IMG/VR virus record: IMGVR_UViG_3300017909_002576
Location: 1-56,138 of that record
DNA length: 56,138 nucleotides
From: a virus
Taxonomy: Duplodnaviria > Caudoviricetes
Direction: 5' to 3' (one strand)
Positions 30,318 through 56,138 of this stretch are shown piece after piece; the first letter of the stretch is position 1; every line of letters begins with the position of its first letter. Position numbers and translations under genes: made by a program. Below the pieces are notes generated by a model, which was not told where the DNA came from, made no database searches, and saw nothing but the letters and a program-made list of their open reading frames with translations.

Positions 30318-30344
30318 ATATACATATAGTTAGGAGTAACAAAT

Positions 30345-34176: not shown

Positions 34177-35803
34177 TGTTCTTGCAGTTATTGTTTTAAC
34201 TGCATGTGGCGGTGGCGGCGGTAGTACTTCGCCTGCACCAATTATAACACCACCTACTACACCACCTGATCCTACACCTACTGACTATAGAATAGAATTT
34301 ACAGAGTTTTCAGATACATTTAATGACATATATGGTGATTCTATAGTTACATATATGATGTCAGAATGGGACACAAATTTATGGCCTAATGAAACTGAAT
34401 CATATGAAATAGGCGACTTTGGTTTCTTAAAAATACAAGTGGATGGTAGACATAATGGTAGTAATGAAGGAGATGAATCTACTTCTCCAGGTCCATTTAC
34501 AAGCGGAGGTTACTGGTACGAAGCAAATTTAAACAATGATGGTTATACAGATATGCTATTTGTTGGACATACTGACGGAGCATTAGATTGGGTGCCAGGT
34601 ATTCGCATGTTAGCATGGATAAATGACGGATATGGTCATTTTACATTAGAGTCTAATGTATTTGAAAATCAGGAGTTCCCTTGTGTATATGGTAATGGAC
34701 CGCAAGTTGATAACACAGATTTTAACAGTTTATGCGGATTTACACAAGGTAATAATTACCCTATAGTAAAAGATTTTAATGGTGATGGTATTACCGATTA
34801 TTTAAATATTGCACAATTACTTATAAGTGATAATGGTGTTATAACAAACAAAAGCCAACAAAATCTTCCTGAGATATTTTTTCAAGATCATATAGGTCCT
34901 GTATTTGTACATCGATTTGTGTCCGGTGATATGGATAATGATGGTGACTTAGATGTATTTTTACCTGTTAACCAAACAACCAAAGAAAATTTTAATATAG
35001 ATGGGTCCTATGCTGGTTGCGACGGTTGTAATCAAGAATTACCATGGATTATGTTAGTAAATGATGGTACTGGTGTTTTTAGTGTGAACACAAAGTTTAA
35101 TAAACCTACGTGGACAGACGGTGTACTTATTTGGCCTACTGCAACTGCAATAGGCGATTTTAACAATGACGGTCATCAAGATATAGTAGTAGGCTGGGAA
35201 TCACCTTCTTATGCAGAAAAATATGGCTGGATAAGTAATAGTTCTGGTAACATTTATCTAAATGATGGCAACAATGATTGGCGTACACAACCTATTAATT
35301 TACCTTCTGCATGGTTTGGCGATAATTCAATTATAGTTGATATGCAAACTATTGATTTTAATCAAGACGGTGCTTTAGATATTGTTATGCAAGTTACAAA
35401 ACATCAACCATATTATCAAGGTAATGTAATTCAGTTTTTACAAAATGATGGTTTTGGTAATTTTGTTGATGTAACTACAGACATCAATACTAATCTTTTA
35501 AAATATCAAGACGGTAGCGGTACATCATACTGGAATGGTGGCGGCGTTTTACATGTATTAGACTATGATGATGACGGGGATAATGATATTGTTTCAACTA
35601 ATGGTAGAAGTTATGTTTTGATAAACAATGCTGGTACTTTTGAAATATTTGATGACTTTCCTTTATATAATTCTGGTGAAGGCGGCAACTTATGGCCGAT
35701 CAAAATTAACAGCGATTACTATTATGATTTTATTGGTCAAGTTAGTGATACAAAATCTGGTAGTAGATCTACTACTGAATACTATCAAGTATTAAGCAAG
35801 TAA
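34157..35803 (+). CDS. Lipoprotein with FG-GAP/VCBS repeats
   Basis: Lipobox LTAC followed by a Gly/Pro linker. Repeats DFNGDGITD, GDMDNDGDLD, GDFNNDGHQD, DFNQDGALD, DYDDDGDND. Confidence 0.8.
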   Translation: MLKNIVSVLAVIVLTACGGGGGSTSPAPIITPPTTPPDPTPTDYRIEFTEFSDTFNDIYGDSIVTYMMSEWDTNLWPNETESYEIGDFGFLKIQVDGRHNGSNEGDESTSPGPFTSGGYWYEANLNNDGYTDMLFVGHTDGALDWVPGIRMLAWINDGYGHFTLESNVFENQEFPCVYGNGPQVDNTDFNSLCGFTQGNNYPIVKDFNGDGITDYLNIAQLLISDNGVITNKSQQNLPEIFFQDHIGPVFVHRFVSGDMDNDGDLDVFLPVNQTTKENFNIDGSYAGCDGCNQELPWIMLVNDGTGVFSVNTKFNKPTWTDGVLIWPTATAIGDFNNDGHQDIVVGWESPSYAEKYGWISNSSGNIYLNDGNNDWRTQPINLPSAWFGDNSIIVDMQTIDFNQDGALDIVMQVTKHQPYYQGNVIQFLQNDGFGNFVDVTTDINTNLLKYQDGSGTSYWNGGGVLHVLDYDDDGDNDIVSTNGRSYVLINNAGTFEIFDDFPLYNSGEGGNLWPIKINSDYYYDFIGQVSDTKSGSRSTTEYYQVLSK

Positions 35804-36661
35804 TTTTTCAAATTTAGGAATGGCAATTTCTGTTGCCCATCTCTTTTGTGCCCACTCACTTAAATGATGACAATGATTATGGTCTGGGTGTTCTATACTA
35901 TCTGGATTCTTTTCTAAATCCCATTGTAAAGCATCTGCAATACCTTTTGTGATTAAATTTTTCTCTGGCACAAAGTCAAAAATAAATTCGTCCATATAAA
36001 TTTTGTCTTGATCCTCTTCCCATGTAAGATTTTGAGTGTCTTGTTTTGTTTGTAGCCATCTAAAAGTATTAGGTGACATTAAGTAAGGTATATTTGCTTT
36101 TTCTAATTGATGTACAGCACCTTGCATCATGTAATATTGGTTTTGTGCTTCTATATTGTCATCATACACATGAATATAGTAATCTCTTAATACCTTAAAT
36201 TTTTTTTCAGTTAGATAATGTGTTGCCCATGGCCAAAACTGTTTGACTGTTTCCCAATCTGCTGTAATGTCTTCTGCAAAAATTAAACCATTTATACTTT
36301 GTCCTATAATTTTAGGCTCGTTAGGATATTCAGGATGATTTAATTCGTTAGTAAAAAAGGAGTCAACATCATAGTCTAATGCACCAAGACCATCGCCGTA
36401 TTTGTAATCTTTGCCTGTATGATTCACAAGCATTCTACATGATGTAGTCCAGTTTAAAATTATGTAGTCTGCCTTGAGGTTTTTAATTGCATGATCTAAT
36501 TGCATTCTGATCCCCCAATTAGGATTTCCTACTACTGCAATATTTTGATAGTCCCAATTAAAGTGTTGCGATACAAAATATCCAAACTCTGTGTCTGGAT
36601 AATTTAAATCTCTACTACTCCAACTACAGCCGCATACTACAAGTTTCTTTTTCAACTGCAT
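35792..36661 (-). CDS. SGNH/GDSL-like acyl hydrolase/transferase
   Basis: VVCGCSWS nucleophile block, NIAVVGNPN, C-terminal His (CHHLS). Confidence 0.55.
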   Translation of the reverse strand: MQLKKKLVVCGCSWSSRDLNYPDTEFGYFVSQHFNWDYQNIAVVGNPNWGIRMQLDHAIKNLKADYIILNWTTSCRMLVNHTGKDYKYGDGLGALDYDVDSFFTNELNHPEYPNEPKIIGQSINGLIFAEDITADWETVKQFWPWATHYLTEKKFKVLRDYYIHVYDDNIEAQNQYYMMQGAVHQLEKANIPYLMSPNTFRWLQTKQDTQNLTWEEDQDKIYMDEFIFDFVPEKNLITKGIADALQWDLEKNPDSIEHPDHNHCHHLSEWAQKRWATEIAIPKFEKLLA

Positions 36662-36809
36662 TCTCCAGTACTATTCTTTTAACAGTTTCGTTACATGTCT
36701 TACATTGTGTGCAAAGTCCAGTTGTATTTATTATGTTTTCTACTGTATTTTCTTTAAGTAATTCTTTTAGTTTACTTTCGCTTATATTTTTACATACGCA
36801 AACTATCAT
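36624..36809 (-). CDS. bfd: Bfd-like [2Fe-2S] ferredoxin
   Basis: MIVCVCKNISE...GLCTQCKTC. Confidence 0.8.
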   Translation of the reverse strand: MIVCVCKNISESKLKELLKENTVENIINTTGLCTQCKTCNETVKRIVLENAVEKETCSMRL

Positions 36810-37354
36810 ACGCCTCTCCTTGCTCTATCTTGCACATATTCAAATGCTACGTCTACTGCATTATCAGTCAAGTCTTTTAAGTAAAAAAACGGTATGTTTA
36901 AATCTTTAAATTGTTCTAAAATAGCATTGTCAATATCTCTACTGCCTTCTTCATTTTGTGCTCTACCGGTTTGCTTAAAAAATTTAGGTCTGTCTAACAT
37001 GAAGTTAATGTTGTCGTATTTGTTGTAACATTCTAAAGCAAGTTGGTCTATAAGTTCACTGTATAATGGTCCATCATACAGTTCTCTATAAATGCTACTG
37101 AGCAAAACAGGCGAGTCTGTAATCACATAATCAACTTTACCAACTAACCTAAGTATCTTTCTGTGCTGATGTGCTAACATGTATAACTGATCTTTCAGCA
37201 TAGGAACATTATCTTCCCATACACATTCTTTGGCAAACTCATTGTTAAGTTCAACACTGAATCCAGCCATATTCATTTTGTAATATAATCCTGCGGCCTT
37301 AGTACTTTTACCAGATCCAGGTCCGCCATAAAAATTAATGACTTTTGTTTTCAT
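36806..37354 (-). CDS. P-loop ATPase/kinase (NadR/AAA_28-like)
   Basis: GGPGSGKST, EFAKE, ITDSP, GRAQNEE. Confidence 0.8.
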   Translation of the reverse strand: MKTKVINFYGGPGSGKSTKAAGLYYKMNMAGFSVELNNEFAKECVWEDNVPMLKDQLYMLAHQHRKILRLVGKVDYVITDSPVLLSSIYRELYDGPLYSELIDQLALECYNKYDNINFMLDRPKFFKQTGRAQNEEGSRDIDNAILEQFKDLNIPFFYLKDLTDNAVDVAFEYVQDRARRGV

Positions 37355-37524
37355 ACTATGTGTTGTTCTCTGCTTTTGTGTGCTGTATGTTTTACACCGC
37401 TTTTGCTTATATAAGGTTGTGTAATACCTTTAGTTCCGCCATCATTGGTAATTACTTGAATCATTAAACTAAACAATCCGATAACGGCAGGCACTATTAC
37501 TGCTATTAAAATTACTCCATCCAT
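37351..37524 (-). CDS. Small single-TM protein (57 aa, not in track)
   Basis: MDGVILIAVIVPAVIGLFSLMIQVITNDGGTKG..., overlapping both neighbours. Confidence 0.55.
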   Translation of the reverse strand: MDGVILIAVIVPAVIGLFSLMIQVITNDGGTKGITQPYISKSGVKHTAHKSREQHIV

Positions 37525-38201
37525 TATTTGTATCCTATTTGCATATATCTTGTGTATGCAGGTGTTATCATTTCTCCAATATAAATTGTTTGTGATAAAG
37601 GATATTTATCCTGCATCTCCTTGACAGTATAGCACGGATTGATATGTCCGTCAAACTCTTCTGAATTATTTGTTTGCATTACGATAAGTTGATCATTATC
37701 TACACTATCAAACCATAATGTACTCATATGTTCGCAACTGGTGTTTATAATCCAATCTGGTTTTACATTTATTAATTCGCCACCTGTTTCAAATTGCATA
37801 TTGTCACAATCAAGCATATCGACATTGTGTACTACACCTTTATACTGCCAGTTGTTTTGCACAAAAGACTGATTTAACTTCTCTGATTTTTCTATTGCTT
37901 CAGCATCTGTATCTATGCCATAAATGCGTTCTATAGGAATAGTTTTGTGTAAAGGCTCTACTAATGCACCAACCCAACTTCCTAAAATTGCTATTGTAGG
38001 TTTTGGTATTTTTGGATATGTATGATTCAATTCTTTTAATAACCAACTTTTACTTGCTAACTGTCCTTTGCTAAATGCATGAGCAGGGTAGTAACTATTA
38101 TGCTGAACTATATGTTCAAAATAACTGGGTGTGGGTTGCCAGAAGCCATCGTCTATATATTTAGATACTTCTTTCCAATTTTTTAAATTGATTGTTTCCA
38201 T
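37524..38201 (-). CDS. Class I SAM-dependent methyltransferase-like protein
   Basis: AFSKGQLASKSWL, IAILGSWVG, YGIDTD, INTSCEH, RYMQIG. Confidence 0.6.
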   Translation of the reverse strand: METINLKNWKEVSKYIDDGFWQPTPSYFEHIVQHNSYYPAHAFSKGQLASKSWLLKELNHTYPKIPKPTIAILGSWVGALVEPLHKTIPIERIYGIDTDAEAIEKSEKLNQSFVQNNWQYKGVVHNVDMLDCDNMQFETGGELINVKPDWIINTSCEHMSTLWFDSVDNDQLIVMQTNNSEEFDGHINPCYTVKEMQDKYPLSQTIYIGEMITPAYTRYMQIGYK

Positions 38202-41200
38202 AATTTCTCTAACCATTTAAAGTCATTGATTTTGTCTAACTCAGACAAGTTGTTTTTATTTTGAGTTGCAAACAGGTTCCCTTCTGATGCTCCTCTAACT
38301 GCTTCTTCTACATAATCACCCCTGGTGGCACTTAACCACTTGTTTAATCTCTCTAAACTTTCAGTATCGTTATTGAGTGTAAGTTTAACACATTCTCTAA
38401 AAGCACTTCTCCATGTACTAAAAGCATCTGTATTAAATTTAGTTATACAACTAACTTGCTCAATGGATTTGAAACGTTTTGAAAGGCCAGTAGTAAAGTC
38501 TAACCCCCAACTTGTTGCGTCTCTTACAAGTTCTGTAGGAAACAGTTTAACTCCCCCATAACCGTATCTATCACCTGTTACAGGATTTTCACTTGACCAG
38601 ACATGCACAACTTCATCATCATATACGTCTGGAATGTAACTAAAATTAAAATCATCTGTAATATCTGCATCGGCATCTACTACCCAAAACATTTTGCTGT
38701 CTACTCTATTTGCGGCTTCTTTGTGAGCATTGAATATTCCTTCGACATCTCTAACCCAAATTAATTTTAAATCTGGATGTGTTTCAATTAATTTTTGCTG
38801 TAATTTTCTAAAGTTAATATCTGCAAAAGGCTCTTTGTAACTTAAGAATACTACGTCAAATAAATTAGTTGTACACCCAGGTTCTTTTACATATTCCAAT
38901 TGCTTAAACCTATTAAGTTTTACATCATCTGATTTTAATGTACTGTAATCTATAAAAGTAGGCCATAATCTAAGGCCGCCGTATGCGTGAACTTTGTCTG
39001 TGATATTGTTGACTTTTTGCCAAGAATGTATTTTATTTACATTTGTAATTTTTGGCAAGTAGCCAGAATCTATTACCTTCTGATCTACTTTAACATCTGG
39101 GTCTATAGTCCAAATAAAGGGTGTTTTGGCTTCCTCTATTGCGTTTACGACCTCTTTCTTTTCTAAACTTTGCAAGTAGATAACTGGCCATTTAGGCTTA
39201 AGGCTTGCAATAGTATTTATTAATTTTAAGTTTGCAAAAGAGTTATTAGCAATATCTTTGTCTGTATATTCGTTATCTAAAAAAGTATTTTTTGGTATTA
39301 GTCTTACGTTTCTATGTGTATTGTCTTCATTTAAAAATACATGCACGTTCTTTTTATCCCATTGCGTAGGGTAGTAATCAAATTTAAAATCCTCGTTTAT
39401 TTGTGTAAATGCATCTACTATCCAGTACATATCGGCGTTAGATTGGGTGCTTAGACGCACATAGACGCTCTGTAAGCCGTCTTTATAGTCTTCTGGGTGT
39501 AAGTGATATACTGGATATTCAATTTGAACACACGCAGGCTCTCTAATGTATTTAGGCCTTTTATGTTTAGTTGAAGGCACTTTAGGACACAACATTATGC
39601 CACCGTAATCATACTGCCTGCCTGTAATTGGATTTAATTTTTGCCATACATGTGTTTTACCACTATCCCATATACTTGGAATATAACTAAAGTCAAAATC
39701 TTCTAACGGCGTAACATCATTTTCTATAACCCAAAACCAGTCTTTTGATGTAAGTTCTCTGCCTTCTTCTTCAGTTTGATAACGTTCAAAAACAGGTTTT
39801 GTAAACGGAGATTCGCTGTGTATTTTTGTTTCTGCATTTTCCCAGTCATATGGCACCCAACGTATGCCTCCTATCTCTTCTGGATACTTATGTTCTAATT
39901 GACCTTGAACATGAAATGTATGTATATAGTCCTTTTCAAAATTGCTTGGTACCCATTCAAAGTTTTCATCTATAATATATTCCTTGTCTATTAACCAACA
40001 TTCGCCAATTGCTTGAGAATAATCATTTGGATCATCTACTACTAAAGCAGGATATTTTTTTGCTTTTACAGGAACGTCATCGTGTACAACATACTCGCCA
40101 TTCCAATTTTTAGGCACCCAACGTACACCTCCCATTTGTTCAGGGTATTTGTGTTTTAGTTGATTAGGTACATGAAATGTGTGTTGGCACAGCATTTCAA
40201 AGCCAGGAGGACACCAATCAATATCACTGTCAATTTGATATTCTTTGTCTATCAGCCAACAGTCCTCAGTTACAATAGATAAATCCTCAACATCATCAAC
40301 ATACAAAATAGGAAATTCTCTGGGTTTTACATGTAAATTTCCTTTATATTTTTTGCTTGTATTACTGTTGATAGATGTTGGTACAAGATAAACACCACCT
40401 TCTTTCTCAGGATATTTATGTATAAGTTGATCTGTAATTTTAAAATTAAGCAAATATTTTTGCTCATCGCGAGTAGGAACATACTTTAATACTTGACTAA
40501 TATTATGTTCGCTATCTATCGACCAAAACATTTTAGTTCTACTCTTTTTTACTGTGTTATAAAAATCTTGCGGATTATCTGTGAAGAAAAGATCGTACCT
40601 CACTGGTACAACATCGTCTTGATATTTGTGTTTTGTATAGTCAAACTCTTTGTGTACAAGTCTTACACCTCCACATCTGAAGTCCCACGGGTCTGTAAAA
40701 TCGTGTGGGTATCTAAAGTCTAAATGCCCTGGTATTTTAAATACGTGAATGTACTCTTGCTCATGTTCTGCAGGAACATAAAGTAATTTTCCATTAAATT
40801 CAAAATCACGATCTACTACCCAAAACCAATCTGTTTTACTTCTGTCTGCATAATCGTTCAATGCTTCTGCTGTAAATTCATTTTCGTCTACATAGAATAC
40901 ATCATAATTTTCGTCCTCTATAGGACATGCAGGGTGTATTTTTATTTCTGCTTCTTTCCAATCTTTAGGAACAAGTCTTACTCCTCCCATCGCCATAGGA
41001 TACTTTTCAGTTAGTTGGTAAGGCATTCTAAAACTGTGAATCATATTTTTTTCAAATGGGTTTGGCACCCAGTCTACAGTTTTAACATTTATTTTATGAT
41101 CTTTATCTATGAGCCATACATAGTCGTCTTCTAATATATCTCTTTGTACATAATCGTTTACATCTTTTACATACAATATAGGATATATTACGTTAGCATC

Positions 41201-41755
41201 TAAATATGTGTGATACTTTATATCTGCATTTTTCCAGTCACGTGGAAACAATTTTATGCCTCCCTCTTCTGCAGGATACTTATGCTCAAGTTGTCCACGT
41301 AAATGGAAACTATGTATAAAGTTTGGTTCGAAATTCCCTGGTGCCCAATCTATATCATCTGCTAATTCGTAATCATTATCAACACACCAAACATGTGTTG
41401 CAAGGCTGTTTTGCTTAAAATAATCTTCTGGTGTGTCAGTATTTAGAATATCAAATACTTTTTTACATACTACTTTGTTGTGATATACTGTTTCTAATTT
41501 ATCAGTTGCTACTTTAGGTAAAAGACTGATTCCTCCGTAATTAGAACTATTCCATTTCCAACAATGTATAAATTTATCTTGCCATGTGTCTGGTCTAAAA
41601 TCAAAAATATCAAAATTTGTAATTTCAATATTAGGTTCTATTAACCAATATAATTTTGTGTTGGCTTTCACTTTAGATGCATCTGTAACTTTTTTAGCAA
41701 ACGGCAGTTTTTCTTGCAGTTGCAAATTTTCGCCTATGTAAAATACATCAAACAT
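38183..41755 (-). CDS. Multi-module glycosyltransferase-like (GT-A-like) repeat protein
   Basis: About 11 copies of (Y/F)(D/P)V...W(V/L)(V/I)D....P......H.F...GG(V/I)xLxP. The last copy has FDVVFLSY, FWVVDAD (DxD), YGYGGVKLFP and WRSAFRECVKL. Confidence 0.65.
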   Translation of the reverse strand: MFDVFYIGENLQLQEKLPFAKKVTDASKVKANTKLYWLIEPNIEITNFDIFDFRPDTWQDKFIHCWKWNSSNYGGISLLPKVATDKLETVYHNKVVCKKVFDILNTDTPEDYFKQNSLATHVWCVDNDYELADDIDWAPGNFEPNFIHSFHLRGQLEHKYPAEEGGIKLFPRDWKNADIKYHTYLDANVIYPILYVKDVNDYVQRDILEDDYVWLIDKDHKINVKTVDWVPNPFEKNMIHSFRMPYQLTEKYPMAMGGVRLVPKDWKEAEIKIHPACPIEDENYDVFYVDENEFTAEALNDYADRSKTDWFWVVDRDFEFNGKLLYVPAEHEQEYIHVFKIPGHLDFRYPHDFTDPWDFRCGGVRLVHKEFDYTKHKYQDDVVPVRYDLFFTDNPQDFYNTVKKSRTKMFWSIDSEHNISQVLKYVPTRDEQKYLLNFKITDQLIHKYPEKEGGVYLVPTSINSNTSKKYKGNLHVKPREFPILYVDDVEDLSIVTEDCWLIDKEYQIDSDIDWCPPGFEMLCQHTFHVPNQLKHKYPEQMGGVRWVPKNWNGEYVVHDDVPVKAKKYPALVVDDPNDYSQAIGECWLIDKEYIIDENFEWVPSNFEKDYIHTFHVQGQLEHKYPEEIGGIRWVPYDWENAETKIHSESPFTKPVFERYQTEEEGRELTSKDWFWVIENDVTPLEDFDFSYIPSIWDSGKTHVWQKLNPITGRQYDYGGIMLCPKVPSTKHKRPKYIREPACVQIEYPVYHLHPEDYKDGLQSVYVRLSTQSNADMYWIVDAFTQINEDFKFDYYPTQWDKKNVHVFLNEDNTHRNVRLIPKNTFLDNEYTDKDIANNSFANLKLINTIASLKPKWPVIYLQSLEKKEVVNAIEEAKTPFIWTIDPDVKVDQKVIDSGYLPKITNVNKIHSWQKVNNITDKVHAYGGLRLWPTFIDYSTLKSDDVKLNRFKQLEYVKEPGCTTNLFDVVFLSYKEPFADINFRKLQQKLIETHPDLKLIWVRDVEGIFNAHKEAANRVDSKMFWVVDADADITDDFNFSYIPDVYDDEVVHVWSSENPVTGDRYGYGGVKLFPTELVRDATSWGLDFTTGLSKRFKSIEQVSCITKFNTDAFSTWRSAFRECVKLTLNNDTESLERLNKWLSATRGDYVEEAVRGASEGNLFATQNKNNLSELDKINDFKWLEKLWKQSI

Positions 41756-47955: not shown

Positions 47956-49171
47956 TAATCTCACACACAGAAATTAGTTCAGGAAATATTGCTCTCCAAC
48001 CGCTTTCGTGTCCTCTTATTTTATCTAACTCATCGTTATACCTACAAAAATGTTCCCATTTAACTTCGTCCCAGTCGTCATTGTCAAACATACTTAGTAA
48101 TGTACCGAGTTCATATCTGTTACCTAACGTTTTTCTAAACTTATCGTGTGCCATGCGTCTCACGACGGGTGGCAAGATTGCAGGCGATAGGTAATCTGGA
48201 TCATATACAAAGTTCATATCAACTGGACAAGGTGCCCAGTTTAAAAAGTCGTCTACATAAATATAATTATATGCACTTACAGTTTGTGTAATTCTTGTAG
48301 TAAGCACATCTTCTTTTAAAAGTATATCTAAATTTTTTGTTACATCTAACCATTGTGTTGGATATCTTATGTAATAATTTCTGGTATCTAAACAATCAAT
48401 ACTTGGACATACTCTTGTTTCTTTGAATTCTTTCCACAACGGAATTGCTTCTTCGGGCAAATTAGTCATATTAATATTGTACCATAGCACAATATTTTTA
48501 CTTCTGCCACTTGATACTAACTTATCTAAAAACTTCCAATGTGCTTTTATAAGGGTCGGCTCGCCACCATTAATATACAAAACTTCCATGTTAGGTGCAC
48601 ACTCAAATAAATCCTCGTAAAAGGATTCATCTTCCGGCCATTGAAAGTCATGTTTGTGGTCGAGCCAACTGTATCCATCGTTGACAAAATCTAACGAGTC
48701 AACAATTTGTTTATAATCTTTAACCCACCTTGAACTACTTGCTGGATTACAAGTGCGACAGCGGATATTACATACGTTACCAAGACGCAACTCGACAAAA
48801 CGAAGATCCAGAGGTATGCTACCATCCTCACCTGTAAGTCTGGATGCGTAACTGGTGTCAAAGTCCGAATAAATCTTGGACTCAAATTGTCTTTTGCTCT
48901 CGACTCCCTTTCTTTCTTCCTCGTAGCATCGAGTACATGCTTTAGGCTCCACATCATTTAACATCTCCAATCTAATCTGCTTAAAGTAATCACTGTTCAT
49001 ATGTGTATCTATGTTGTGATCATTTAAATTAAAAAATTTATCTCCCTCATCAGTAAAATTTCTTGCTCTATTTTTACCTGCAGTCATGTCGGAAATACAA
49101 CAAGGTGTAACACCTCCATGAGGGTGTGTGCCTAAATGCATCCAAGGTAATGGGCAAAACGTTTTACTCAT
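47933..49171 (-). CDS. Radical SAM protein with N-terminal Twitch/SPASM-like domain (4)
   Basis: FCPLPW..PCC..ACTRC, CNIRCRTC, NGGEP. Confidence 0.9.
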   Translation of the reverse strand: MSKTFCPLPWMHLGTHPHGGVTPCCISDMTAGKNRARNFTDEGDKFFNLNDHNIDTHMNSDYFKQIRLEMLNDVEPKACTRCYEEERKGVESKRQFESKIYSDFDTSYASRLTGEDGSIPLDLRFVELRLGNVCNIRCRTCNPASSSRWVKDYKQIVDSLDFVNDGYSWLDHKHDFQWPEDESFYEDLFECAPNMEVLYINGGEPTLIKAHWKFLDKLVSSGRSKNIVLWYNINMTNLPEEAIPLWKEFKETRVCPSIDCLDTRNYYIRYPTQWLDVTKNLDILLKEDVLTTRITQTVSAYNYIYVDDFLNWAPCPVDMNFVYDPDYLSPAILPPVVRRMAHDKFRKTLGNRYELGTLLSMFDNDDWDEVKWEHFCRYNDELDKIRGHESGWRAIFPELISVCEINGIQHKY

Positions 49172-50490
49172 ATTACACTCCCTTTTTCTAAAGTACCATA
49201 ATTTGGATTTACTTTTGCTTCTTTTAGTTCTCCATCATAATAAAATACTTTATGATTTTTTAACACAGTAAATAATTCAGGAAAACTTTCTCTAAAGTTT
49301 TCTTTCCTATATAAATCACCTGCAACGGTCTGTGATATAAACAAACTCCACCGCCATGCTATTTCATTTTCTACAGTATCATTTATGCCTGTACCGTAAG
49401 GGACAACTGTTTCTGTTCTTGGAGTAAGTACATGTTTAATTATACCAGCAATATCGTCTCTATATTCTTCCCTAAATTGCTCTAAGTTTTGTAATGGTTT
49501 TACAATCTCTTCCTTACATTCTTCTGGAAAAATATTAGGATTATACCAAGTTGGAAAGTTAGCCATGTTGTGAAAAATTTTAAACTTAGGCCAACGTTCT
49601 GCAAAAATTTTATGAAACTCTGCAAGATACATTACGTTTAAACTTGATACTGTATGTGTAACACCAATTGCAATAGCAGGTAATAAACTGTGAAAGTAAT
49701 CTAAATTTTCGCAAACTTCTTTCCAAACAGCACCATGTCTTAGATATTCAAATCTTTTAGCCACTGCACCATCTATACTTATATTAAAACCAACACTTGC
49801 AAAGTTATCAATCATTTTTTGTAAAAAATCTTTGTTTAGTGTAGTTCCATTTGTGCTTAAATTAACATGTACATTTTTAGCAATGTCGTCATCGATTAAT
49901 TTGTTAGCAAATACTTTGAACTCTTTCATGTAAAAAGGTTCACCTCCCATTATTTCTAAGTATTTTGCATGTGGTAGCCAGTCATCAATTTCTGTCCAAA
50001 ATTTACTGTTGTTTACATCATCAAAATTTATTTTAACTTTTTCTTTGACATAAGGCATTCTTCTCTCTTCGGCTTCTTTTACCCATTTGCTACTGTAATT
50101 TGGATTGCATGTTCTACATTTTAAATTACATGTTGTACTTAAAATAATTTGCAAATCCTCAGGCATATCTGGTTCTTCTGCGTAGTCTATGTCTGGATAT
50201 CTATAATCTGCATATTCATTGTATATTTGTCTTTTAGACTTTACACCATTGCGTTCGTCTCTCCAACAAGGTTCACAATTAGAAGGCATTTTACCTTCTC
50301 TTATTTCTTGCCTAATGTTTTTATAATAATCACTGTGAAAAACATCACGTATAGATGTTTCGCCTAAAGTATATTCCTTACCATCTGAATCGGTAACTCT
50401 ATCTCTTGCTATGCAACATGTTCTAACATGTCCAAACGGTTCGTTCGAGATGTGTTTCCATAGTAAGGAACAATACTTAGGTTTACTCAT
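49168..50490 (-). CDS. Radical SAM protein with N-terminal Twitch/SPASM-like domain (5)
   Basis: YCSLLW..TCC..NCEPC, CNLKCRTC, MGGEP. Confidence 0.9.
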   Translation of the reverse strand: MSKPKYCSLLWKHISNEPFGHVRTCCIARDRVTDSDGKEYTLGETSIRDVFHSDYYKNIRQEIREGKMPSNCEPCWRDERNGVKSKRQIYNEYADYRYPDIDYAEEPDMPEDLQIILSTTCNLKCRTCNPNYSSKWVKEAEERRMPYVKEKVKINFDDVNNSKFWTEIDDWLPHAKYLEIMGGEPFYMKEFKVFANKLIDDDIAKNVHVNLSTNGTTLNKDFLQKMIDNFASVGFNISIDGAVAKRFEYLRHGAVWKEVCENLDYFHSLLPAIAIGVTHTVSSLNVMYLAEFHKIFAERWPKFKIFHNMANFPTWYNPNIFPEECKEEIVKPLQNLEQFREEYRDDIAGIIKHVLTPRTETVVPYGTGINDTVENEIAWRWSLFISQTVAGDLYRKENFRESFPELFTVLKNHKVFYYDGELKEAKVNPNYGTLEKGSVI

Positions 50491-51812
50491 TATTTTGCTC
50501 GAGTATTACCGTAATGAACTACTTTAACACCTTCTATATCTGGAGTTTTTCTCCATGGATCAACTACAATACTACCTGGTGCAAAATTTAATTCTGTACC
50601 ATTGCCTGTTGATACTAAAGCATCGTCACAGTCTGTAACTTTATGGTCACCGTACCAGCCTGGTACAGTATCTAATTGATCGCCATAAGTGATTCCTGGA
50701 TTATGTGCAAGTAGATATACAGCAGGTTTGTTTAATATTTCTTGAGGTGGCATATCGCCTGTTTTCTCATCATAATAGTATAACTCGTGACCAGCATGTT
50801 CTACATAATGTCCAACTAACATACTTGCCGAGCCGGCTTCATATTCTACTAATGGCTTATAAGCCTTACCAACAATAATAATAGGCAATCCGTTAATGTG
50901 AGTGCTTGTTGTTGGATGGTAATCGCTCTCAGATAAATCTATTAATCTGTGTGCCATATTTTTTGCTTGTACTTCTCTGGAAAGCATCACAGCATCAAAT
51001 AAGTCATAACCAAGGTCTAATTCTTCTGCCATCCAACGTAAGGCAATATTATCTCTTGGGTGACAAGCACCACCATCGCCCATACCTGGCTTCATATAAC
51101 CTGGTCCCATAATACGTCTGTCACTTTGTGCAAGGGCATCACACACAACTTCTGCATTAATGTTACCTTGCTTTTCTGCTACGTCTTGTATCATGTTTAC
51201 CAAACTTACTTTTGCTGATATAAATGTATTGTAGAATACTTTAATACATTCTGTTTCGTCCCAAGTGCCTATAATGTATCTTGGTTCGTTCTGCATGATC
51301 GTTTTATAAAAGTCAACAAGTTCTTTTGCATCACCTGTTTCACTTCCGTCTTCTGTTCCTATCATTACCATTTCTGGATTAACCATATCCCACTTTACTG
51401 TACCCATAGCAATAAGATATGGATTGTAAACGAATCTGGCATTTGGAATTAAATCAATAAATTCTCGTCTGGTTGTACCAGGCAAGACTGTTGATATAAG
51501 GACTACTAATTGGTCTTTTGTTGCAACCGCATTTACTTCACTAAGTACTTGCTTGACCAATGTATAGTCAAAGTCCTTATTAGGTAAATGGCTGGTTGGT
51601 GCTTTTCCATCATACTGTGGGTCATGTGGAGTAGGTACTGCAATAAAAACTATATCTCTGTCTTTAACTGCACCTTCCAATGTGTCGCTCATTGTAAAGT
51701 TTTCAGGCTCTACAGGATTAACATCATACCCAACAACATCATGTACTTCAGCGACCATCTCGGCACAGGCTTGTCCTAACTTACCTACACCGATAAATCC
51801 GACTGAGGCCAT
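50490..51812 (-). CDS. ugd: UDP-glucose/GDP-mannose 6-dehydrogenase family
   Basis: GVGKLG, AVPTP, STVLPGTT, IKVFYNTF, GGACHPRD (catalytic Cys), GKAYKP, DPW. Confidence 0.85.
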   Translation of the reverse strand: MASVGFIGVGKLGQACAEMVAEVHDVVGYDVNPVEPENFTMSDTLEGAVKDRDIVFIAVPTPHDPQYDGKAPTSHLPNKDFDYTLVKQVLSEVNAVATKDQLVVLISTVLPGTTRREFIDLIPNARFVYNPYLIAMGTVKWDMVNPEMVMIGTEDGSETGDAKELVDFYKTIMQNEPRYIIGTWDETECIKVFYNTFISAKVSLVNMIQDVAEKQGNINAEVVCDALAQSDRRIMGPGYMKPGMGDGGACHPRDNIALRWMAEELDLGYDLFDAVMLSREVQAKNMAHRLIDLSESDYHPTTSTHINGLPIIIVGKAYKPLVEYEAGSASMLVGHYVEHAGHELYYYDEKTGDMPPQEILNKPAVYLLAHNPGITYGDQLDTVPGWYGDHKVTDCDDALVSTGNGTELNFAPGSIVVDPWRKTPDIEGVKVVHYGNTRAK

Positions 51813-51852
51813 CTTTATCTCCTGTGTTGTTATGTAGTATTAACTACAGTTA

Positions 51853-51860
51853 TATTTATC
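51853..51860 (-). promoter_or_regulatory. Putative late promoter for the ugd-radical SAM operon
   Basis: GATAAATA on the minus strand, about 40 nt upstream of ugd; AGGAG RBS at about 51820. Confidence 0.55.
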
Positions 51861-52572
51861 AGAGTAGTTTTTGGTATCTTTGAATTTCAGATTCCAGATA
51901 TCTTTCTATGTAAAAGTAAATATTTGTATTTTTTAAACACTCTTCTATTTTGCTTTTTATTATAGAATCGCTTACATTTGCTGTGCTTCTCTTGAGACCG
52001 AGATCTGACATGTATGCATTTAGTTGCTTTGAATCTACTATAATTGCGTTATCGTAGATTTCTGCTTCATATAGCCAATTTCTTGTATGATAATTATAGT
52101 GTAATGCAAAGTCTGAAGGGTAAGGGAAATCTTTATCCCAATCCCAAGTTTTTTGTTTTTTGAATTCAGATAGATAATACAATCTATCTAACTGTTTAGT
52201 TAAAGTTTTATTATCTAAATTTTTAATTAATTTGTTATAATCTTCTGCTGTATATAAAATTGATAAAGAGTCTTGTAGTATTTCTAAAATACCGCTTACA
52301 TACCTTTGCCAAGGATCTCTAATAATAAAGATAGGTTGATAATTTCTATCAGAAACTAACATGTCTAATGCTATTAATTGATCAACGTAATGTTTCTCCC
52401 AGCCATGCACACCTTGTTCAGGTATGTCGTACAGTTCGTTCATAAATTGTGCGTCCATTTCGCCTACGCAATACCAATTAGGTAAATTTTCTACTGACTG
52501 TTGAAAACTTGTAGTGCCAGTTTTGCCTAAACTGTAAACTGCAAGATTATTTTGTGTATCAACTGCTAACAT
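51859..52572 (-). CDS. Sulfotransferase-like protein
   Basis: KTGTTS (5'-PSB-like) and IIRDPWQRYVSG (3'-PB-like) motifs. Confidence 0.6.
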   Translation of the reverse strand: MLAVDTQNNLAVYSLGKTGTTSFQQSVENLPNWYCVGEMDAQFMNELYDIPEQGVHGWEKHYVDQLIALDMLVSDRNYQPIFIIRDPWQRYVSGILEILQDSLSILYTAEDYNKLIKNLDNKTLTKQLDRLYYLSEFKKQKTWDWDKDFPYPSDFALHYNYHTRNWLYEAEIYDNAIIVDSKQLNAYMSDLGLKRSTANVSDSIIKSKIEECLKNTNIYFYIERYLESEIQRYQKLL

Positions 52573-53975
52573 TATCTTTGATTATCTTTGAAATCCGTTC
52601 TCATCCACCAGTCATATAATTCGTTGTCTAATTTGTAAACATCTTCTATAGTAGTTGCTTCATCTGGTCTCATTTCTGCTATACGTCTTTGCCATTTTCT
52701 GCCTTTGAAGAAACTATCCTCATGCTCTTCAGGCCATTGCTCCTCAAATGTAGGTACAGTTAACATATTTTCTAATTCTCTTATTAATGTTTCCTGTTTT
52801 TGTGTTGCACGTGGACGTATATAATCTAAATTTTCATTTATAATTCTATCTAAAATATGTCTTGGCCAGGCCATAGGACTAAACACTATGTCACTGTGAA
52901 AAGCAAACATACGTTTTGTTTCAATTTTTACATCTAACTCTAATGCGTAATCAAAGAAGTTTTTGAGATCAAACATGCCAGGTCCTGTTAATGTTAAGTC
53001 CATTAACATTTTATCATTACCACCAGGTAGTGCTACACCCTCTCTGAAGTTTTTGTCCCACTCGTCCCATTTAAGTCCTGTACGAATAAATTCTCCTATC
53101 CAACCTGTTGCATCTATACTTGCACACATTGTCCAGTCTTTTGCCTGTGGTAACCAGTCATACAAATAATGTTTGCCTAAACGTACACGACTTAAATTAC
53201 TATTATAACGTAAGTGTACAAGTTTTAGTGTATCATCTTGTGCTAACCTATCCATTGCTCGCCAATGTATATCATACATAAGTGGTTCACCACCTACCCA
53301 ATATAATTCTTCAACTGTACCTGAGCATATATACTCCCAAAATTCTTCTTCAACTACCTCTTTTTGAAATTTGTCAATTATCTTTTTATTCTCTGGAACC
53401 ATGAACGGCTGGTTCTCAGGCGACCATTGATTATGCTTTCTCTTTTCCGCCTCCCAACTTGAACTGAGCGGCTCGCCACACATACGGCATTTAAAATTGC
53501 ATAAATTACTAACCCTATAATCAAAAGAGATAGGCTCCATTGTAGTGTATCCATTTTCGTCTGTCTCCTCAAAACATTTATCTATTTTATCTTCAAACAA
53601 GTAGCCTGTAAACCATTGTCTATATGTACTTTGACTTAGTACACTATCATTACAAACATTACATTGTGGTATTTCCTCACCTGCCATTAGTTTTTTTCTA
53701 ATGTCCATCATGTATTCGCTATTCCAATGCTCCTTTAATGTAACTGGTTTATAATCTGCAATAGTTCCTACAGGCCTAAACATACCTGTACTTTCATCAT
53801 TACTGGCATCTATGTATTGTTTTTGCATCATGTGATCTTCGCGGGAGGCACAGCACATACGTCTTTCACTTTGTGGACTTATATAGGTATGTGTCCAGGG
53901 TGCTGTACAAAACACCTTGTTAGGTGAGTCTGGACTCATTTGGCCATGTTGCCATTTAGGTTTTATTTTAGCCAT
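52572..53975 (-). CDS. Radical SAM protein with N-terminal Twitch/SPASM-like domain (6)
   Basis: FCTAPW..MCC..QCNVC, CNFKCRMC, VGGEP. Confidence 0.9.
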   Translation of the reverse strand: MAKIKPKWQHGQMSPDSPNKVFCTAPWTHTYISPQSERRMCCASREDHMMQKQYIDASNDESTGMFRPVGTIADYKPVTLKEHWNSEYMMDIRKKLMAGEEIPQCNVCNDSVLSQSTYRQWFTGYLFEDKIDKCFEETDENGYTTMEPISFDYRVSNLCNFKCRMCGEPLSSSWEAEKRKHNQWSPENQPFMVPENKKIIDKFQKEVVEEEFWEYICSGTVEELYWVGGEPLMYDIHWRAMDRLAQDDTLKLVHLRYNSNLSRVRLGKHYLYDWLPQAKDWTMCASIDATGWIGEFIRTGLKWDEWDKNFREGVALPGGNDKMLMDLTLTGPGMFDLKNFFDYALELDVKIETKRMFAFHSDIVFSPMAWPRHILDRIINENLDYIRPRATQKQETLIRELENMLTVPTFEEQWPEEHEDSFFKGRKWQRRIAEMRPDEATTIEDVYKLDNELYDWWMRTDFKDNQR

Positions 53976-54741
53976 TAGCAATCTCTAATTGATTCATGTT
54001 TACAAAAAAGTCATAGAATTTTTCTGGACTTAGGATTGCACCTTCTGAATCGTTATCCCCTAAATATTTTTCTACATAGTGTACATTTTTAAAAACAACT
54101 GCACAATCTGGAAATACATCTGGTGTTCTACCTTCGTACCCTAAATAAAAATCTTTTTGAATCATACTTTTATAATCATCAATTGCACTTAAATTTATTT
54201 CTTCAATTTCACACGGTAGTTTGTTGCCTGCATGATAAAGTGTAAGACGTTTTCTTCTTTTTGTGTCAGTAAGATAATAATCAAAAATTTGTTTAATATA
54301 TTGCTTACATGTATTACAATTACCGCCATACATAATATTTTGAAAATTTTCTATAGCAAACTTAACAACTTCCCAATCTTTTCTTGAATCCCAATGTACT
54401 TTTACATTTCGGCATGCAGTATTTTCTTTAACCCATTCACCTGCTTGAGAATCTGTAATACACCATATCAATGGAATCCCTATTTGTTCTACTAAATCAT
54501 TAATTTTTCTTGCATTTAATTCATCTATTTCGCTTTTTTCTGCAACTTCAAGATAAGGTAAATGGCCCCACTTACTTTGTATGCTTAAATATTTTTTGTT
54601 TTCAGGTATTACTAAATGAGGTGTTGATTTAGTTAATACTACTGCATCAGCATTACATTGCGCCGCGGCAACTATTCGTTTTTTAATTACTTCAAAGTCG
54701 TTTTCGTGACCAACACCAATATTAGCATACAATTTAATCAT
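53968..54741 (-). CDS. Degenerate NeuB/PseI (nonulosonate synthase)-like protein
   Basis: ANIGVGHEND....I.AA..CNADAV, EEINL..I, LGYEGR, YVEKYL. These track the NeuB motifs AEIGxNHNG, ADAVKFQ, GYSDH and IEKH, with substitutions. Confidence 0.6.
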   Translation of the reverse strand: MIKLYANIGVGHENDFEVIKKRIVAAAQCNADAVVLTKSTPHLVIPENKKYLSIQSKWGHLPYLEVAEKSEIDELNARKINDLVEQIGIPLIWCITDSQAGEWVKENTACRNVKVHWDSRKDWEVVKFAIENFQNIMYGGNCNTCKQYIKQIFDYYLTDTKRRKRLTLYHAGNKLPCEIEEINLSAIDDYKSMIQKDFYLGYEGRTPDVFPDCAVVFKNVHYVEKYLGDNDSEGAILSPEKFYDFFVNMNQLEIANG

Positions 54742-56137
54742 TACCTGCTTCACCTCCTAAGCCATCAGTCTCGGTATCCCAACCTATGCTACTACCTGCT
54801 TGATTAATTTTTTCATCATCTGCATACTTTTTATCATCATAGTCATCTTGGCTTTCGCCTGTATTACGATTACGCATTTTCATTTCTACAACTTTAACTT
54901 CGCCATCTTCTGTAACAACTCTCTTTGCATATAATCCGCCAGTAACTCCTGCTGTTTTTGGTGCTTGTATATCTTCCTCATCTACGTTAAAGTCTTGTAA
55001 CTTAATACTATCATAAAATTCTACCATGTTGGGAAATGTTTCTCTAAAATCAAAACCACGTCTTGCATCGTACTGCTCATAAAATAGTTTAAAGTCATGC
55101 TCTAATAGTTCTCTGTCAGCAGTATTTCTGTGAGGAGTTTTTACAACGTCCAAGTATTCAATTAGTCTGCTTACTTGATCTTGCTCCCAAGGTTGCACTA
55201 ACAGTTGCCCGTCTTTGTCCTTTTCTTCTTTTTCTCTTACTTCTTTTAACCATGCAAAAACTTCGTCATGATATTTTTTACGCAAGTTATCAGGTAATGT
55301 TAAGGGTGACTGGAAACTTGGAAAACGTAAAATGTTACAGGTAAATCCAGGACGATTATGACCGTATTTACGTTTCATCTCAAGCATCCAGTCAAAAAAT
55401 TCGACAATACTATCTAAGCATAATGCATTAATAGTCATCATCATGTGTAAGCCTTCTATTCTTGCTTCACTACAAACTTTTTCAAATGCTTTAGTCCACT
55501 GCTCCCATTTTAGTCCGTCTCTAATATATTCTGCTTGTGGACCAAATGCTTCGCAACTTGTGTATAAATGGAATCTATTGATGTTTTGTGTGCCAGCAAT
55601 CATTTTATCTAACAAGTCTGGCTTTGCCATAAGATTACTATTAATTGCAAATCTCATGTTGTCTTTATTAGGCTCGTCTGTTGTTTCGAACCAATCAAAT
55701 AATTGATAAATGTCAGGAGTCATAAGTGGTTCTCCGCCTGTGACTCTAATTTCTTCTAATTCTGTACTTAATTCAGGCCACCATCTCCAGAATGCATCTA
55801 CATACGGATTGAATTCTCCCTGATCAAAGGGTTCGGCGTAGGGGGCATCATCAATAAAATGTCCTCTTGCATCTGATTTTATGCCTTGATAGCCTCCGTT
55901 AGTACGAATGTCTTTTACCCATGTAGAGGAGAATGCTGGGTTGCAGTAACTACATGCTAATTGACAAGTTCTATTAAAGGCTATTTCTAATGTTTTTAAG
56001 TTTACATCAAACTGTGGATCTAAGGTTGCCGCAGTATGTAAGTCATCATCTTCATATATAACTGTTTTATATACTCTATCACTTACAGGCTCATTACCGT
56101 CTGCGTCTTTGCCCATGTCTTCTATTTTCCAACAGTA
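54734..56137 (-). CDS. Radical SAM protein with Twitch/SPASM-like domain (7), 5'-truncated by the window
   Basis: The frame is open to the window end (YCWKIEDMGKD); CQLACSYC, TGGEP. Confidence 0.88.
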   Translation of the reverse strand, partial: YCWKIEDMGKDADGNEPVSDRVYKTVIYEDDDLHTAATLDPQFDVNLKTLEIAFNRTCQLACSYCNPAFSSTWVKDIRTNGGYQGIKSDARGHFIDDAPYAEPFDQGEFNPYVDAFWRWWPELSTELEEIRVTGGEPLMTPDIYQLFDWFETTDEPNKDNMRFAINSNLMAKPDLLDKMIAGTQNINRFHLYTSCEAFGPQAEYIRDGLKWEQWTKAFEKVCSEARIEGLHMMMTINALCLDSIVEFFDWMLEMKRKYGHNRPGFTCNILRFPSFQSPLTLPDNLRKKYHDEVFAWLKEVREKEEKDKDGQLLVQPWEQDQVSRLIEYLDVVKTPHRNTADRELLEHDFKLFYEQYDARRGFDFRETFPNMVEFYDSIKLQDFNVDEEDIQAPKTAGVTGGLYAKRVVTEDGEVKVVEMKMRNRNTGESQDDYDDKKYADDEKINQAGSSIGWDTETDGLGGEAGND

Positions 56138-56138
56138 C

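Follow-up and report, generated by a model that had tools for sequence, protein, structure and literature searches.

The window analysed here is the IMG/VR virus record IMGVR_UViG_3300017909_002576 (Duplodnaviria; Caudoviricetes), taken whole at 56,138 bp; it has no end repeats and a CheckV completeness of about 12%. From position 35792 to its end, the minus strand carries a cluster of 19 open reading frames (ORFs), named g1 to g19 by rising coordinate, in which genes for radical S-adenosylmethionine (SAM) proteins stand among genes for sugar-handling and tailoring enzymes (Table 1). At 16 of the 18 junctions the neighbouring genes overlap (1-38 nt), and the other two are gaps, of 169 nt between g4 and g3 and of 46 nt between g16 and g15; the longer overlaps are possibly an artefact of the first-start rule used in the ORF list. 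The sign of the GC skew flips at about 36 kb, the same place as the switch of coding strand. Every gene that a first-pass annotation of this sequence had named was found on the minus strand within these limits, and Pfam and NCBIfam confirm the list. The clustering of these genes is real and far beyond chance.

Table 1. Genes of the cluster and the promoter-like motif within it (bit scores refer to NF033640)
Feature	Length (aa)	Description	Position	Strand	Basis
g1	289	SGNH-like (GCS...G...N...H), paralogue of g9	35792..36661	-	alignment pattern
g2	61	Bfd-like [2Fe-2S] ferredoxin	36624..36809	-	PF04324
g3	182	P-loop kinase-like (AAA_28)	36806..37354	-	PF13521
g4	230	viral-only family, possible class I methyltransferase	37524..38216	-	weak match
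g5	1190	tandem repeats of ~90 aa (9-11), the last a complete GT-A-like module	38183..41755	-	repeats, model
g6	68	small Cys-containing protein	41748..41954	-	conserved in relatives
g7	504	NodU/CmcH/TobZ-type carbamoyltransferase	41941..43455	-	Carbam_trans_N + Carbam_trans_C
g8	65	highly charged small protein	43452..43649	-	conserved in relatives
g9	203	DUF6071 / SGNH-like	43649..44260	-	PF19547
g10		radical SAM paralogue, N-terminal twitch	44257..45567	-	354.8 bits
g11		radical SAM paralogue, N-terminal twitch	45560..46735	-	320.3 bits
g12		radical SAM paralogue, N-terminal twitch	46732..47964	-	399.4 bits
g13		radical SAM paralogue, N-terminal twitch	47933..49171	-	348.1 bits
g14		radical SAM paralogue, N-terminal twitch	49168..50490	-	302.4 bits
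g15	440	divergent NDP-sugar 6-dehydrogenase	50490..51812	-	UDPG_MGDP_dh domains
GATAAATA		late-promoter-like motif, in the 46-nt gap before g15	51852..51859	-	motif likeness
g16	237	sulfotransferase-like	51859..52572	-	Sulfotransfer_2, marginal
g17		radical SAM paralogue, N-terminal twitch	52572..53981	-	292.7 bits
g18	261	divergent NeuB-family TIM barrel	53968..54753	-	PF03102
g19		radical SAM paralogue, 5' end cut by window end	54734..56138	-	225.9 bits

A radical SAM family with the twitch domain first

All seven radical SAM ORFs of the window exceed the curated cut-off (170 bits) of the NCBIfam family NF033640 (N_Twi_rSAM, "twitch domain-containing radical SAM protein"), with 225.9-399.4 bits, and they share its domain order, the twitch before the radical SAM core. 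Each carries the CxxxCxxC motif. The cysteines C137, C141 and C144 and the SAM-binding motif GGEP (G210-G211-E212-P213) are invariant among the seven paralogues and remain so in an alignment of 33 sequences, where the radical SAM cluster cysteines are numbered C134, C138 and C141. Four N-terminal cysteines (C19, C38, C79 and C82) are also invariant in the larger alignment, which fits one auxiliary [4Fe-4S] cluster. A radical SAM core with one auxiliary cluster is likewise found in BtrN, DesII and BlsE, but the domain order is reversed relative to the BtrN type: in g10 the SPASM match covers residues 10-80 and Radical_SAM residues 134-321, and a SPASM match or the twitch cysteines precede Radical_SAM in six of the seven paralogues. 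The seventh, g19, seems to lack the twitch because the end of the contig truncates its ORF, which is open at the window end. Its match to NF033640 runs from model position 78 onward, whereas its orthologues have 553-555 aa and the one of 553 aa matches model positions 1-398. The specific analogy with BtrN and NeoN drawn in the first-pass annotation is not borne out, the twitch being N-terminal here and the BtrN match having an E of 0.028 over about 40 twitch residues.

Proteins with the opposite domain order are encoded on plasmid pBHWA1 of Brachyspira hyodysenteriae, which was reached through a single weak tblastn plasmid match (E 1e-3) and serves as an analogy only. There, seven radical SAM/SPASM genes lie among rfbABCD, rfbF and genes for a GDP-mannose dehydratase and glycosyltransferases (GTs), so that this bacterial plasmid likewise holds an array within a sugar cluster; a block of the plasmid's genes has been linked to virulence (accessible text of PMC4267127). 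The core of these proteins matches the N_Twi model at positions of about 100-290 and their C-terminal twitch matches positions 2-76, with 28-85 bits against the cut-off of 170. Given this order of matches, the phage family looks like a circular permutation of such enzymes.

The window paralogues are only 20-31% identical to g10. In a quick maximum-likelihood tree of 39 proteins, each falls into a four-member clade of its own with one protein from each of three related phages (G001, G002 and G003), and all these clades have an SH-aLRT support of 100. Their stems measure 0.79-2.74 and the tips mostly 0.02-0.4; g17, for example, has orthologues of 84-94% identity in the relatives. The long stems and the separate clades indicate that the duplications are old and that every copy was retained, which points to distinct, conserved roles for the paralogues.

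NF033640 is a large family (33,479 representatives at E <= 0.001 and 7,509 at E <= 1e-30) that is named, has no assigned function and occurs mostly in phage-like contigs. A search of the accessible literature found no paper on its function. In some members, several of a set of 30 long ones among them, two or three enzyme units are naturally fused in tandem, to a length of about 790-1200 aa. When prokaryote genomes were scanned with a single family protein, only three weak archaeal matches were found. Among GenBank phages, megablast with 12 kb of the cluster gave no match, and tblastn with g12 retrieved 20 records, all below 26% identity, comprising KVP40-like Vibrio phages, Vibrio phages K566/K567 and Ralstonia phage RsoM2USA.

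The structural model of g12 has a pLDDT of 90.5, and the best fold matches (Z) are BlsE (12.1), anSME (12.1), CteB (11.9), DesII (11.8), SkfB (11.7), MoaA (11.4) and viperin (11.0); the twitch of BlsE and DesII, unlike that of the window family, is not N-terminal. Sequence searches of the PDB returned generic radical SAM matches, the best profile match being 8vpo, a cyclopropylglycine synthase (PMC10878394, accessible text), and g12 alone retrieved only SkfB, at E 0.027. Sequence and fold leave the substrate class undecided between sugar and peptide.

Sugar, tailoring and small proteins of the cluster

Among the sugar enzymes, g15 matches the central (E 2.4e-18) and N-terminal (E 1.4e-15) UDPG_MGDP_dh domains above the Pfam cut-offs, as well as phrog_9148 (E 3e-95). 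It has no match to the C-terminal UDP-binding domain at E <= 0.01, and its 144.5 bits to TIGR03026 are below the cut-off of 189.8. It carries GGACHPRD, which we liken to the catalytic-Cys motif of UDP-glucose/GDP-mannose dehydrogenases. The NeuB-like g18 matches PF03102 (E 3e-11, 43.7 bits against 22.1), has no SAF domain match in its short sequence and reaches 43.2 bits with NeuB_NnaB, whose cut-off is 399.65. The match of g16 to Sulfotransfer_2 is marginal (E 7.7e-5, 23.4 bits against 22) and covers residues 3-100 only; near the N-terminus stands GKTGTTS, which is similar to the 5'-PSB loop that binds 3'-phosphoadenosine 5'-phosphosulfate. Homologues of g16 in relatives are 32-47% identical, and none was detected in the G001 stretch (locus L016).

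The carbamoyltransferase g7 is assigned at the family level only. Both of its domains score far above their cut-offs (Carbam_trans_C, E 9.6e-54, 181.9 bits against 27; Carbam_trans_N, E 3.7e-35, 122.4 bits against 24), and it matches phrog_1601 (E 1.5e-103) and is 45% identical to the RsoM2USA_199 product, but it falls short of the NodU equivalog (127.3 bits against 1000). The kinase-like g3 has an AAA_28 match of E 3.1e-12 and matches phrog_2107 "thymidylate kinase" at E 7.8e-19. For g2, the Bfd match has an E of 1.9e-7 (31.7 bits against 26). The gene is present in L012 (G003) and was not detected in L011 (G002), and contigs from two marine or estuarine sequencing runs join position 36651 to 36806, skipping 36652-36805, i.e. 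most of the gene, which suggests that the ferredoxin is dispensable or variable in natural populations.

The calls of a methyltransferase-like gene and of two SGNH proteins, both from the first-pass annotation, are less secure. g4 matches Methyltransf_12 at E 0.23 only; in the Atlas its neighbours are viral clusters, the nearest named ones bearing Methyltransf_31, which gives a weak lead. In every relative, even in the distant L013 and L014, it comes after the GT-like gene. g1 has no Pfam or PHROG match, and its homologues in L011 and L012 are 39-52% identical; the only hidden Markov model (HMM) match of g9 is DUF6071 (E 2.3e-7), and its Atlas neighbours are viral DUF6071 clusters, in one of which 11% of members are Lipase_GDSL. 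An SGNH-like profile returned nothing relevant from the PDB, and no SGNH HMM matches either protein, but in an alignment of g1, g9 and 10 homologues the residues G8-C9-S10, N35, N43 and H185 are invariant and G40 is nearly so, a pattern of the S/G/N/H kind. The small proteins g6 and g8 match no family. Copies of g6 with 58-60% identity occur in L008-L011, and g8 is conserved in L012 and in 8 of 47 loci of the g19 clade (see below). A Pfam search relaxed to E <= 10 gave only sub-threshold matches for g1, g4, g6, g8 and the repeats of g5.

The giant protein g5 contains nine copies of the motif GG[IV][RK] by regular expression and two further degenerate ones by eye, and it matches its own family HMM nine times. 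Its orthologues range from 1099 to 1280 aa, so the number of repeats varies. A PDB sequence search gave no match. The last 250 aa define a family of 2,671 proteins (E <= 1e-5), and the best 120 of these matches have no relevant Pfam domain (one has an unrelated domain) and no informative name. In 34 sequences of this family D87 and D89 (the DxD motif), H71, W113, N117 and YGYGG are invariant and H111 is nearly so. The AlphaFold model of the 250 residues has a mean pLDDT of 87.5 and gives 47 Foldseek matches at E <= 1e-3, of which the best is PcManGT (2.5e-5) and those listed are GT-A or related. VIA-align finds B4GALNT1 (Z 12.2, rmsd 2.9, 141 aligned), a Leptospira GT (Z 11.8) and the viral GTs Mimivirus R699 (10.9), STIV A197 (10.8) and PBCV-1 A64R (10.1). 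The last module is thus predicted to have a GT-A fold with a DxD motif, a claim that covers this module alone. The first-pass label of a giant GT-repeat protein is borne out by the model for this part, although the GT2 match of the sequence is marginal (24.8 bits).

Conservation in relatives and gene context of the family

With g5 as the query, seven viral loci were found (L008-L014). L008-L010 gave identical tblastn results and apparently represent one phage, L011 (G002) and L012 (G003) are distinct, and L013 (G004) and L014 are distant. The order kept among them is five radical SAM genes, (an SGNH-like gene), the carbamoyltransferase gene, g6, the giant GT gene, g4, the kinase gene, (the Bfd gene) and g1. 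Synteny is kept in three related phages and in part in two distant ones. G001, G002 and G003 each have eight family members above the NF033640 cut-off; G004 has 14 matches, eight of them above it.

G002 shows what lies upstream of the stretch that the window covers. First comes a tail-fibre protein of 1192 aa, which has a Peptidase_S74 chaperone domain, and then about eleven unannotated ORFs, including a DUF1289 protein and a 332-aa homologue of the g5 repeats. Next come an eighth radical SAM paralogue (511 aa), a WYL_2 protein, the g19 orthologue, the NeuB-like gene, the g17 orthologue, the sulfotransferase-like gene and the gene for UDP-glucose dehydrogenase (UGDH). The cluster had been expected to run on past the window and to persist as a unit in related phages, and the comparison of gene neighbourhoods agrees on both counts: upstream, the relatives have one more paralogue together with genes for a GT-like and a tail-fibre protein, and synteny is kept. 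Across the relatives the cluster comes after tail-fibre or receptor-binding genes on the same strand. Accessory genes vary. G003 adds a DUF6071-like gene and a canonical NeuB-family gene (E 6e-60), and the L008 phage has a 2-oxoglutarate (2OG) oxygenase-like insert. The 14 family matches of G004 (L013/L024) lie within 36.9 kb that also encodes an arginase-family protein (E 1.3e-89), an Asp/Asn beta-hydroxylase-like protein and a 1023-aa protein with its radical SAM unit at the C-terminus.

The context of the family at large was assessed in two sets of loci, whose counts are indicative only, the loci not having been dereplicated and each set having been drawn from one seed protein. The first comprises 47 viral loci around the enzyme of the g19 clade, viewed within 10 kb. 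A GT-like gene of the g5 family is present in 42 of them, UGDH in 18, a NeuB-like gene in 13, and carbamoyltransferase and sulfotransferase-like genes in seven each; 46 hold two to eight radical SAM genes and one short locus shows none. The second comprises 80 of 175 confirmed metagenome loci obtained with P0313, a TPR-fused family member (27-45% identical). Local profiles identified 321 family ORFs in 76 of these loci (1-9 per locus), together with GT-like genes in 24, SGNH-like in 14, UGDH in 12, and carbamoyltransferase and g4-like genes in seven each. The remaining 494 non-overlapping ORFs formed 204 clusters, and 63 of the 70 clusters found in at least two loci were scanned. Carbohydrate enzymes make up 14 of the 63, namely (with numbers of loci) NAD epimerase/dehydratase (12, 5 and 3), GT10 (5), GT11 (4), GT2 (4), FkbM methyltransferase (5 and 2), Methyltransf_13 (4), DegT/EryC1 aminotransferase (3), ManC-like (3), the sulfotransferases Stf0 (3) and Sulfotransfer_2 (2), and GDSL (3). 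About a dozen are phage housekeeping functions (ligase, PhoH, UvdE, amidase, HNH), and 28 have no match. The recurrence of the arrays beside enzymes of nucleoside diphosphate (NDP) sugars and glycosyltransferases supports a role in sugar metabolism by context.

Several other neighbours recur in the metagenome set. A B12-binding radical SAM protein that the window lacks, about 685 aa long, adjoins the arrays more often than any other (28 proteins in 25 of the 80 loci). Two families without annotation were seen in 20 and 12 loci, and an FG-GAP protein with a peptidoglycan-binding domain lies near the arrays in two.

The same context bears on a different explanation, in which the radical SAM paralogues modify residues of a phage protein or peptide (by cross-links, epimerisation or hydroxylation-like changes) and the sugar genes form a separate, adjacent glycosylation module. 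It is chiefly for the maturation of peptides that SPASM/twitch radical SAM enzymes are known (PMC11002830, accessible text), and the peptide enzymes anSME, CteB and SkfB share the top of the fold matches. The small ORFs g6 and g8 lie conserved within the operon, and genes for an Asp/Asn beta-hydroxylase, a 2OG oxygenase and an arginase-family protein stand in clusters of relatives. Among 30 long family members, six have TPR and one has Sel1 repeats. Such repeats usually bind proteins, so the fusions hint at protein partners. On the other side, the hallmarks of ribosomally synthesised and post-translationally modified peptides (a recognition element (RRE/PqqD), a leader peptidase and an exporter) were found neither among the 19 window proteins, with Pfam and NCBIfam, nor among the 63 recurrent neighbour clusters. 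The neighbours that have an annotation are most often NDP-sugar enzymes and glycosyltransferases, not every relative has g6 and g8, and the nearest unpermuted relatives found sit in an rfb sugar cluster. We regard modification of a protein or peptide as distinctly unlikely.

A proposed cytoplasmic glycan pathway and its possible acceptors

The reading that we prefer, and to which we give about even weight, is that the cluster is a phage island for the assembly and tailoring of a glycan, working wholly in the cytoplasm. In such a pathway g15 would oxidise an NDP-hexose to a uronic acid and the NeuB-like g18 would condense a sugar with phosphoenolpyruvate. Eight radical SAM paralogues would cleave SAM at the CxxxCxxC [4Fe-4S] cluster to yield a 5'-deoxyadenosyl radical, each with one auxiliary [4Fe-4S] cluster presumably held by the four N-terminal cysteines. 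The radical would abstract hydrogen from one specific carbon, either of an NDP-sugar or of a sugar in the nascent glycan, and the outcome may be epimerisation, oxidation, deoxygenation or the formation of a C-C bond. The Bfd ferredoxin would supply electrons, the GT-A modules of g5 would link the sugars, and the carbamoyltransferase, sulfotransferase-like, SGNH-like, kinase-like and methyltransferase-like proteins would decorate the product. The acceptor may be a tail fibre or capsid protein, as in the virion glycosylation of giant viruses and mycobacteriophages. Outside the cluster, region 18344-20501 (plus strand) encodes a strongly matching NAD-dependent sugar epimerase/dehydratase (E 1.5e-56) and a GT1-like protein whose match (E 1.4e-4) is under the Pfam cut-off; these genes might feed the cluster pathway.

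Each of these reactions is inferred, as are their order, the product and the acceptor, and the earlier caution that product and acceptor cannot be read from the sequence holds. The earlier proposal of a glycan pathway based on radical chemistry survives in so far as the context is best read as that of a sugar pathway, but action of the radical SAM enzymes on sugars is not borne out by the fold search, which ties sugar- or nucleoside-acting enzymes (BlsE, DesII) with peptide-acting ones (anSME, CteB, SkfB) at Z 11.7-12.1. That tie counts against our reading, as do several other observations. The proteins g15, g16 and g18 are divergent, scoring below curated NCBIfam cut-offs or marginally over those of Pfam, and the fold of the last g5 module is common to nucleotidyltransferases (IspD-type, Z about 11). 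The arrays of the distant G004 adjoin the arginase-family and Asp/Asn beta-hydroxylase genes and no recognisable NDP-sugar genes. The TPR/Sel1 fusions (7 of 30 long members) speak against purely NDP-sugar substrates, and the indicative nature of the locus counts, the crudeness of the hydropathy scan and the commonness of the promoter-like word, the last two described below, weigh on the same side.

Three kinds of evidence bear on the acceptor. The first is the promoter. A late-type promoter had been proposed at the head of the block that starts with g15, and GATAAATA does stand in the gap before this gene, one letter off TATAAATA, which we take to be the T4 late-promoter consensus. With this mismatch the claim is a weak one, and the motif is a common word: it belongs to 16 ATAAATA sites in the window, several of which lie just upstream of ORF starts, and NATAAATA-like words sit directly upstream of several plus-strand ORFs. 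Exact TATAAATA occurs twice in the window, neither time inside the cluster, against 8.75 (sd 2.98) expected, and all 100 shuffles have at least two. Scans for sigma-70 promoters (78 against 88.8) and terminators (8 against 8.9) are at or under the shuffle expectation. The second is solubility. In a crude hydropathy scan with 19-residue windows, none of the 19 proteins shows a convincing membrane segment, as only a barrel strand of g10 (1.72) exceeds 1.6, and Pfam detects no lipid-carrier transferase, flippase, polymerase or exporter family in the cluster. The third is the linkage to tail-fibre genes in the relatives. The lack of membrane segments and of lipid-carrier transferase, flippase and polymerase makes a structural protein of the phage, from tail fibre or capsid, the likeliest acceptor, and solubility, tail-fibre linkage and the late-type motif together favour an acceptor made late and in the cytoplasm, i.e. 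a virion protein. Within the glycan reading, we regard a virion protein as a possible acceptor, at somewhat less than even probability.

The same three lines argue against remodelling of the host envelope, in which the NDP-sugars or glycans would enter the lipopolysaccharide, capsule or S-layer of the host and block superinfection by other phages. Here the absence of convincing membrane segments and of polyprenyl-phosphate transferase, flippase, polymerase and exporter from the genes detected is unfavourable, the hallmarks of Gtr-type seroconversion (membrane-embedded transferase, flippase) are lacking in the cluster, the soluble 11-module GT looks self-sufficient, and the late-type motif and tail-fibre linkage suit a virion product better. 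Yet UGDH, NeuB-like, sulfotransferase and carbamoyltransferase genes are typical of surface polysaccharides, and the bacterial analogue pBHWA1 is an rfb-type cluster. The T4-like pelagimyophages have a host-recognition cluster of similar gene content, in which radical SAM cassettes accompany tail fibres, glycosyltransferases and UDP-glucose 6-dehydrogenase; for its glycosyltransferases a role of this kind has been proposed, and the authors suggest, and favour, modification of the host O-chain (Zaragoza-Solas et al. 2020, PMC7029224, accessible text). On balance envelope remodelling seems unlikely.

DNA is another conceivable acceptor, with a decorated sugar or other group placed on phage bases to evade host nucleases. 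Phages do glycosylate DNA, although the terms radical SAM, carbamoyl and glucuronate do not appear in the accessible text of the source that describes this (PMC13326640). The cluster has a P-loop kinase-like gene, and a group of genes at 20533-23305 (plus strand), for a phosphoribosyltransferase, GTP cyclohydrolase I (E 3.6e-37) and a QueE-like radical SAM protein (phrog_2076, E 3.6e-51), suggests a 7-deazaguanine DNA modification pathway and an investment of this phage in modified DNA. The deazaguanine genes are, however, apart from the cluster and on the opposite strand, and the cluster is linked in relatives to tail-fibre genes and not to replication genes. To our knowledge, no DNA modification calls for a multi-module GT with NeuB-like and sulfotransferase-like proteins, and DNA hypermodification is very improbable. 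We give similarly little credence to a soluble small molecule, i.e. a nucleoside- or aminoglycoside-like metabolite acting on the host or on competitors. Radical SAM enzymes of the BlsE, DesII and BtrN types and TobZ-type carbamoyltransferases serve pathways of this kind, and all the enzymes look soluble, but no exporter or self-resistance gene was detected, and an oligo- or polysaccharide would better account for the multi-module GT and for the variety of GT families in related loci.

The plus-strand half of the window encodes a T4-type DNA polymerase (phrog_262, E 1.7e-197), an exonuclease and a structural or tail-fibre-like protein. The nearest cultured relatives of the polymerase are those of Sinorhizobium phage Phosso (469 kb, 47% identity) and Agrobacterium phage Atu_ph07 (490 kb, 43%). 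Since these are large phages and contigs with orthologous clusters reach 339,794 bp, the source is probably a jumbo phage. Eighteen sequencing runs contain at least half of the words sampled from 10 kb of the cluster, and 20 contain some of them; these runs come from 11 seawater, marine or estuary studies, in which the block is nearly identical. In three DNA runs the contigs span the whole cluster, all 30 bins of it. One RNA-labelled run holds 32% of the sampled words, but its library may contain DNA and contigs cannot show transcription. On our preferred reading the cluster belongs to a marine, T4-related phage. Other plus-strand genes are a 548-aa protein with a lipoprotein-like signal (LTACGGGGG) and FG-GAP repeats, convergent on the cluster end (34157-35803); a phage-encoded cytochrome c domain protein (26610-27053, E 3.2e-7); two 2OG-Fe(II) oxygenases (9295-9915 and 28080-28535); and, at 29086-31682, a conserved pair of an AAA ATPase (phrog_1297, E 1.7e-95) and a DUF2201 metallopeptidase/VWA-like protein (E 2.1e-36).

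Phage sugar islands were already known, and radical SAM cassettes in marine T4-like phages had been noted in passing. A T4-like marine genome of 183 kb has 12 radical SAM genes (Nishimura et al. 2017, PMC5332604, accessible text). Like the window, this phage and the pelagimyophages are marine and T4-related and have a variable island of tail-fibre, sugar and radical SAM genes; the window polymerase is nearest to the jumbo phages named above and not to a cultured pelagiphage. The accessible texts of PMC7029224 and PMC5332604 note the genes only and do not analyse the radical SAM family, its permutation, the paralogues or the association with sugars. Among cultured phages (RsoM2USA, K566/K567, KVP40-like), the sets are far smaller, with one to four copies annotated as hypothetical or generic radical SAM, and the stretches examined gave no match to UGDH, NeuB-like or g5-like GT genes. 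Vibrio phage K566 has four family members in a row (142-202 bits). Genes 199-203 of RsoM2USA form a small version of the cluster, with three DUF6071-like genes, the carbamoyltransferase gene and the family member RsoM2USA_202 (305 bits, 47% identical to g19).

Giant viruses offer a more distant parallel. Virus-encoded multi-domain GTs and the sugar clusters of Megavirinae take part in their glycosylation (PMC9614988 and PMC10117803, accessible texts), and viruses with chlorovirus A064R-type proteins and Megavirinae likewise encode soluble multi-domain GT-A proteins and their own NDP-sugar pathways. These are eukaryotic viruses, though, and the Z of the g5 module to their GTs is no higher than to unrelated GT-A proteins. 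We know of no radical SAM arrays in their glycosylation systems.

In its widest form, our reading is that the family with the N-terminal twitch is a combinatorial toolkit with which aquatic phages edit sugars by radical chemistry, the paralogues rewriting different carbons and the resulting rare sugars coating tail fibres or capsid; we advance this only tentatively and hold it to be rather doubtful. Were it true, circularly permuted twitch radical SAM enzymes acting on carbohydrates would be a new enzyme class, and virion glycosylation by radical chemistry would be widespread in the ocean. If the enzymes do edit sugars, they would add greatly to the radical chemistry of carbohydrates, and an abundant "dark" block of phage genes would be explained. 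The eight conserved paralogues adjoining a UDP-sugar dehydrogenase would provide a defined test set for enzymology, and the result would help to show in what way large marine phages alter the surface of their virions or hosts.

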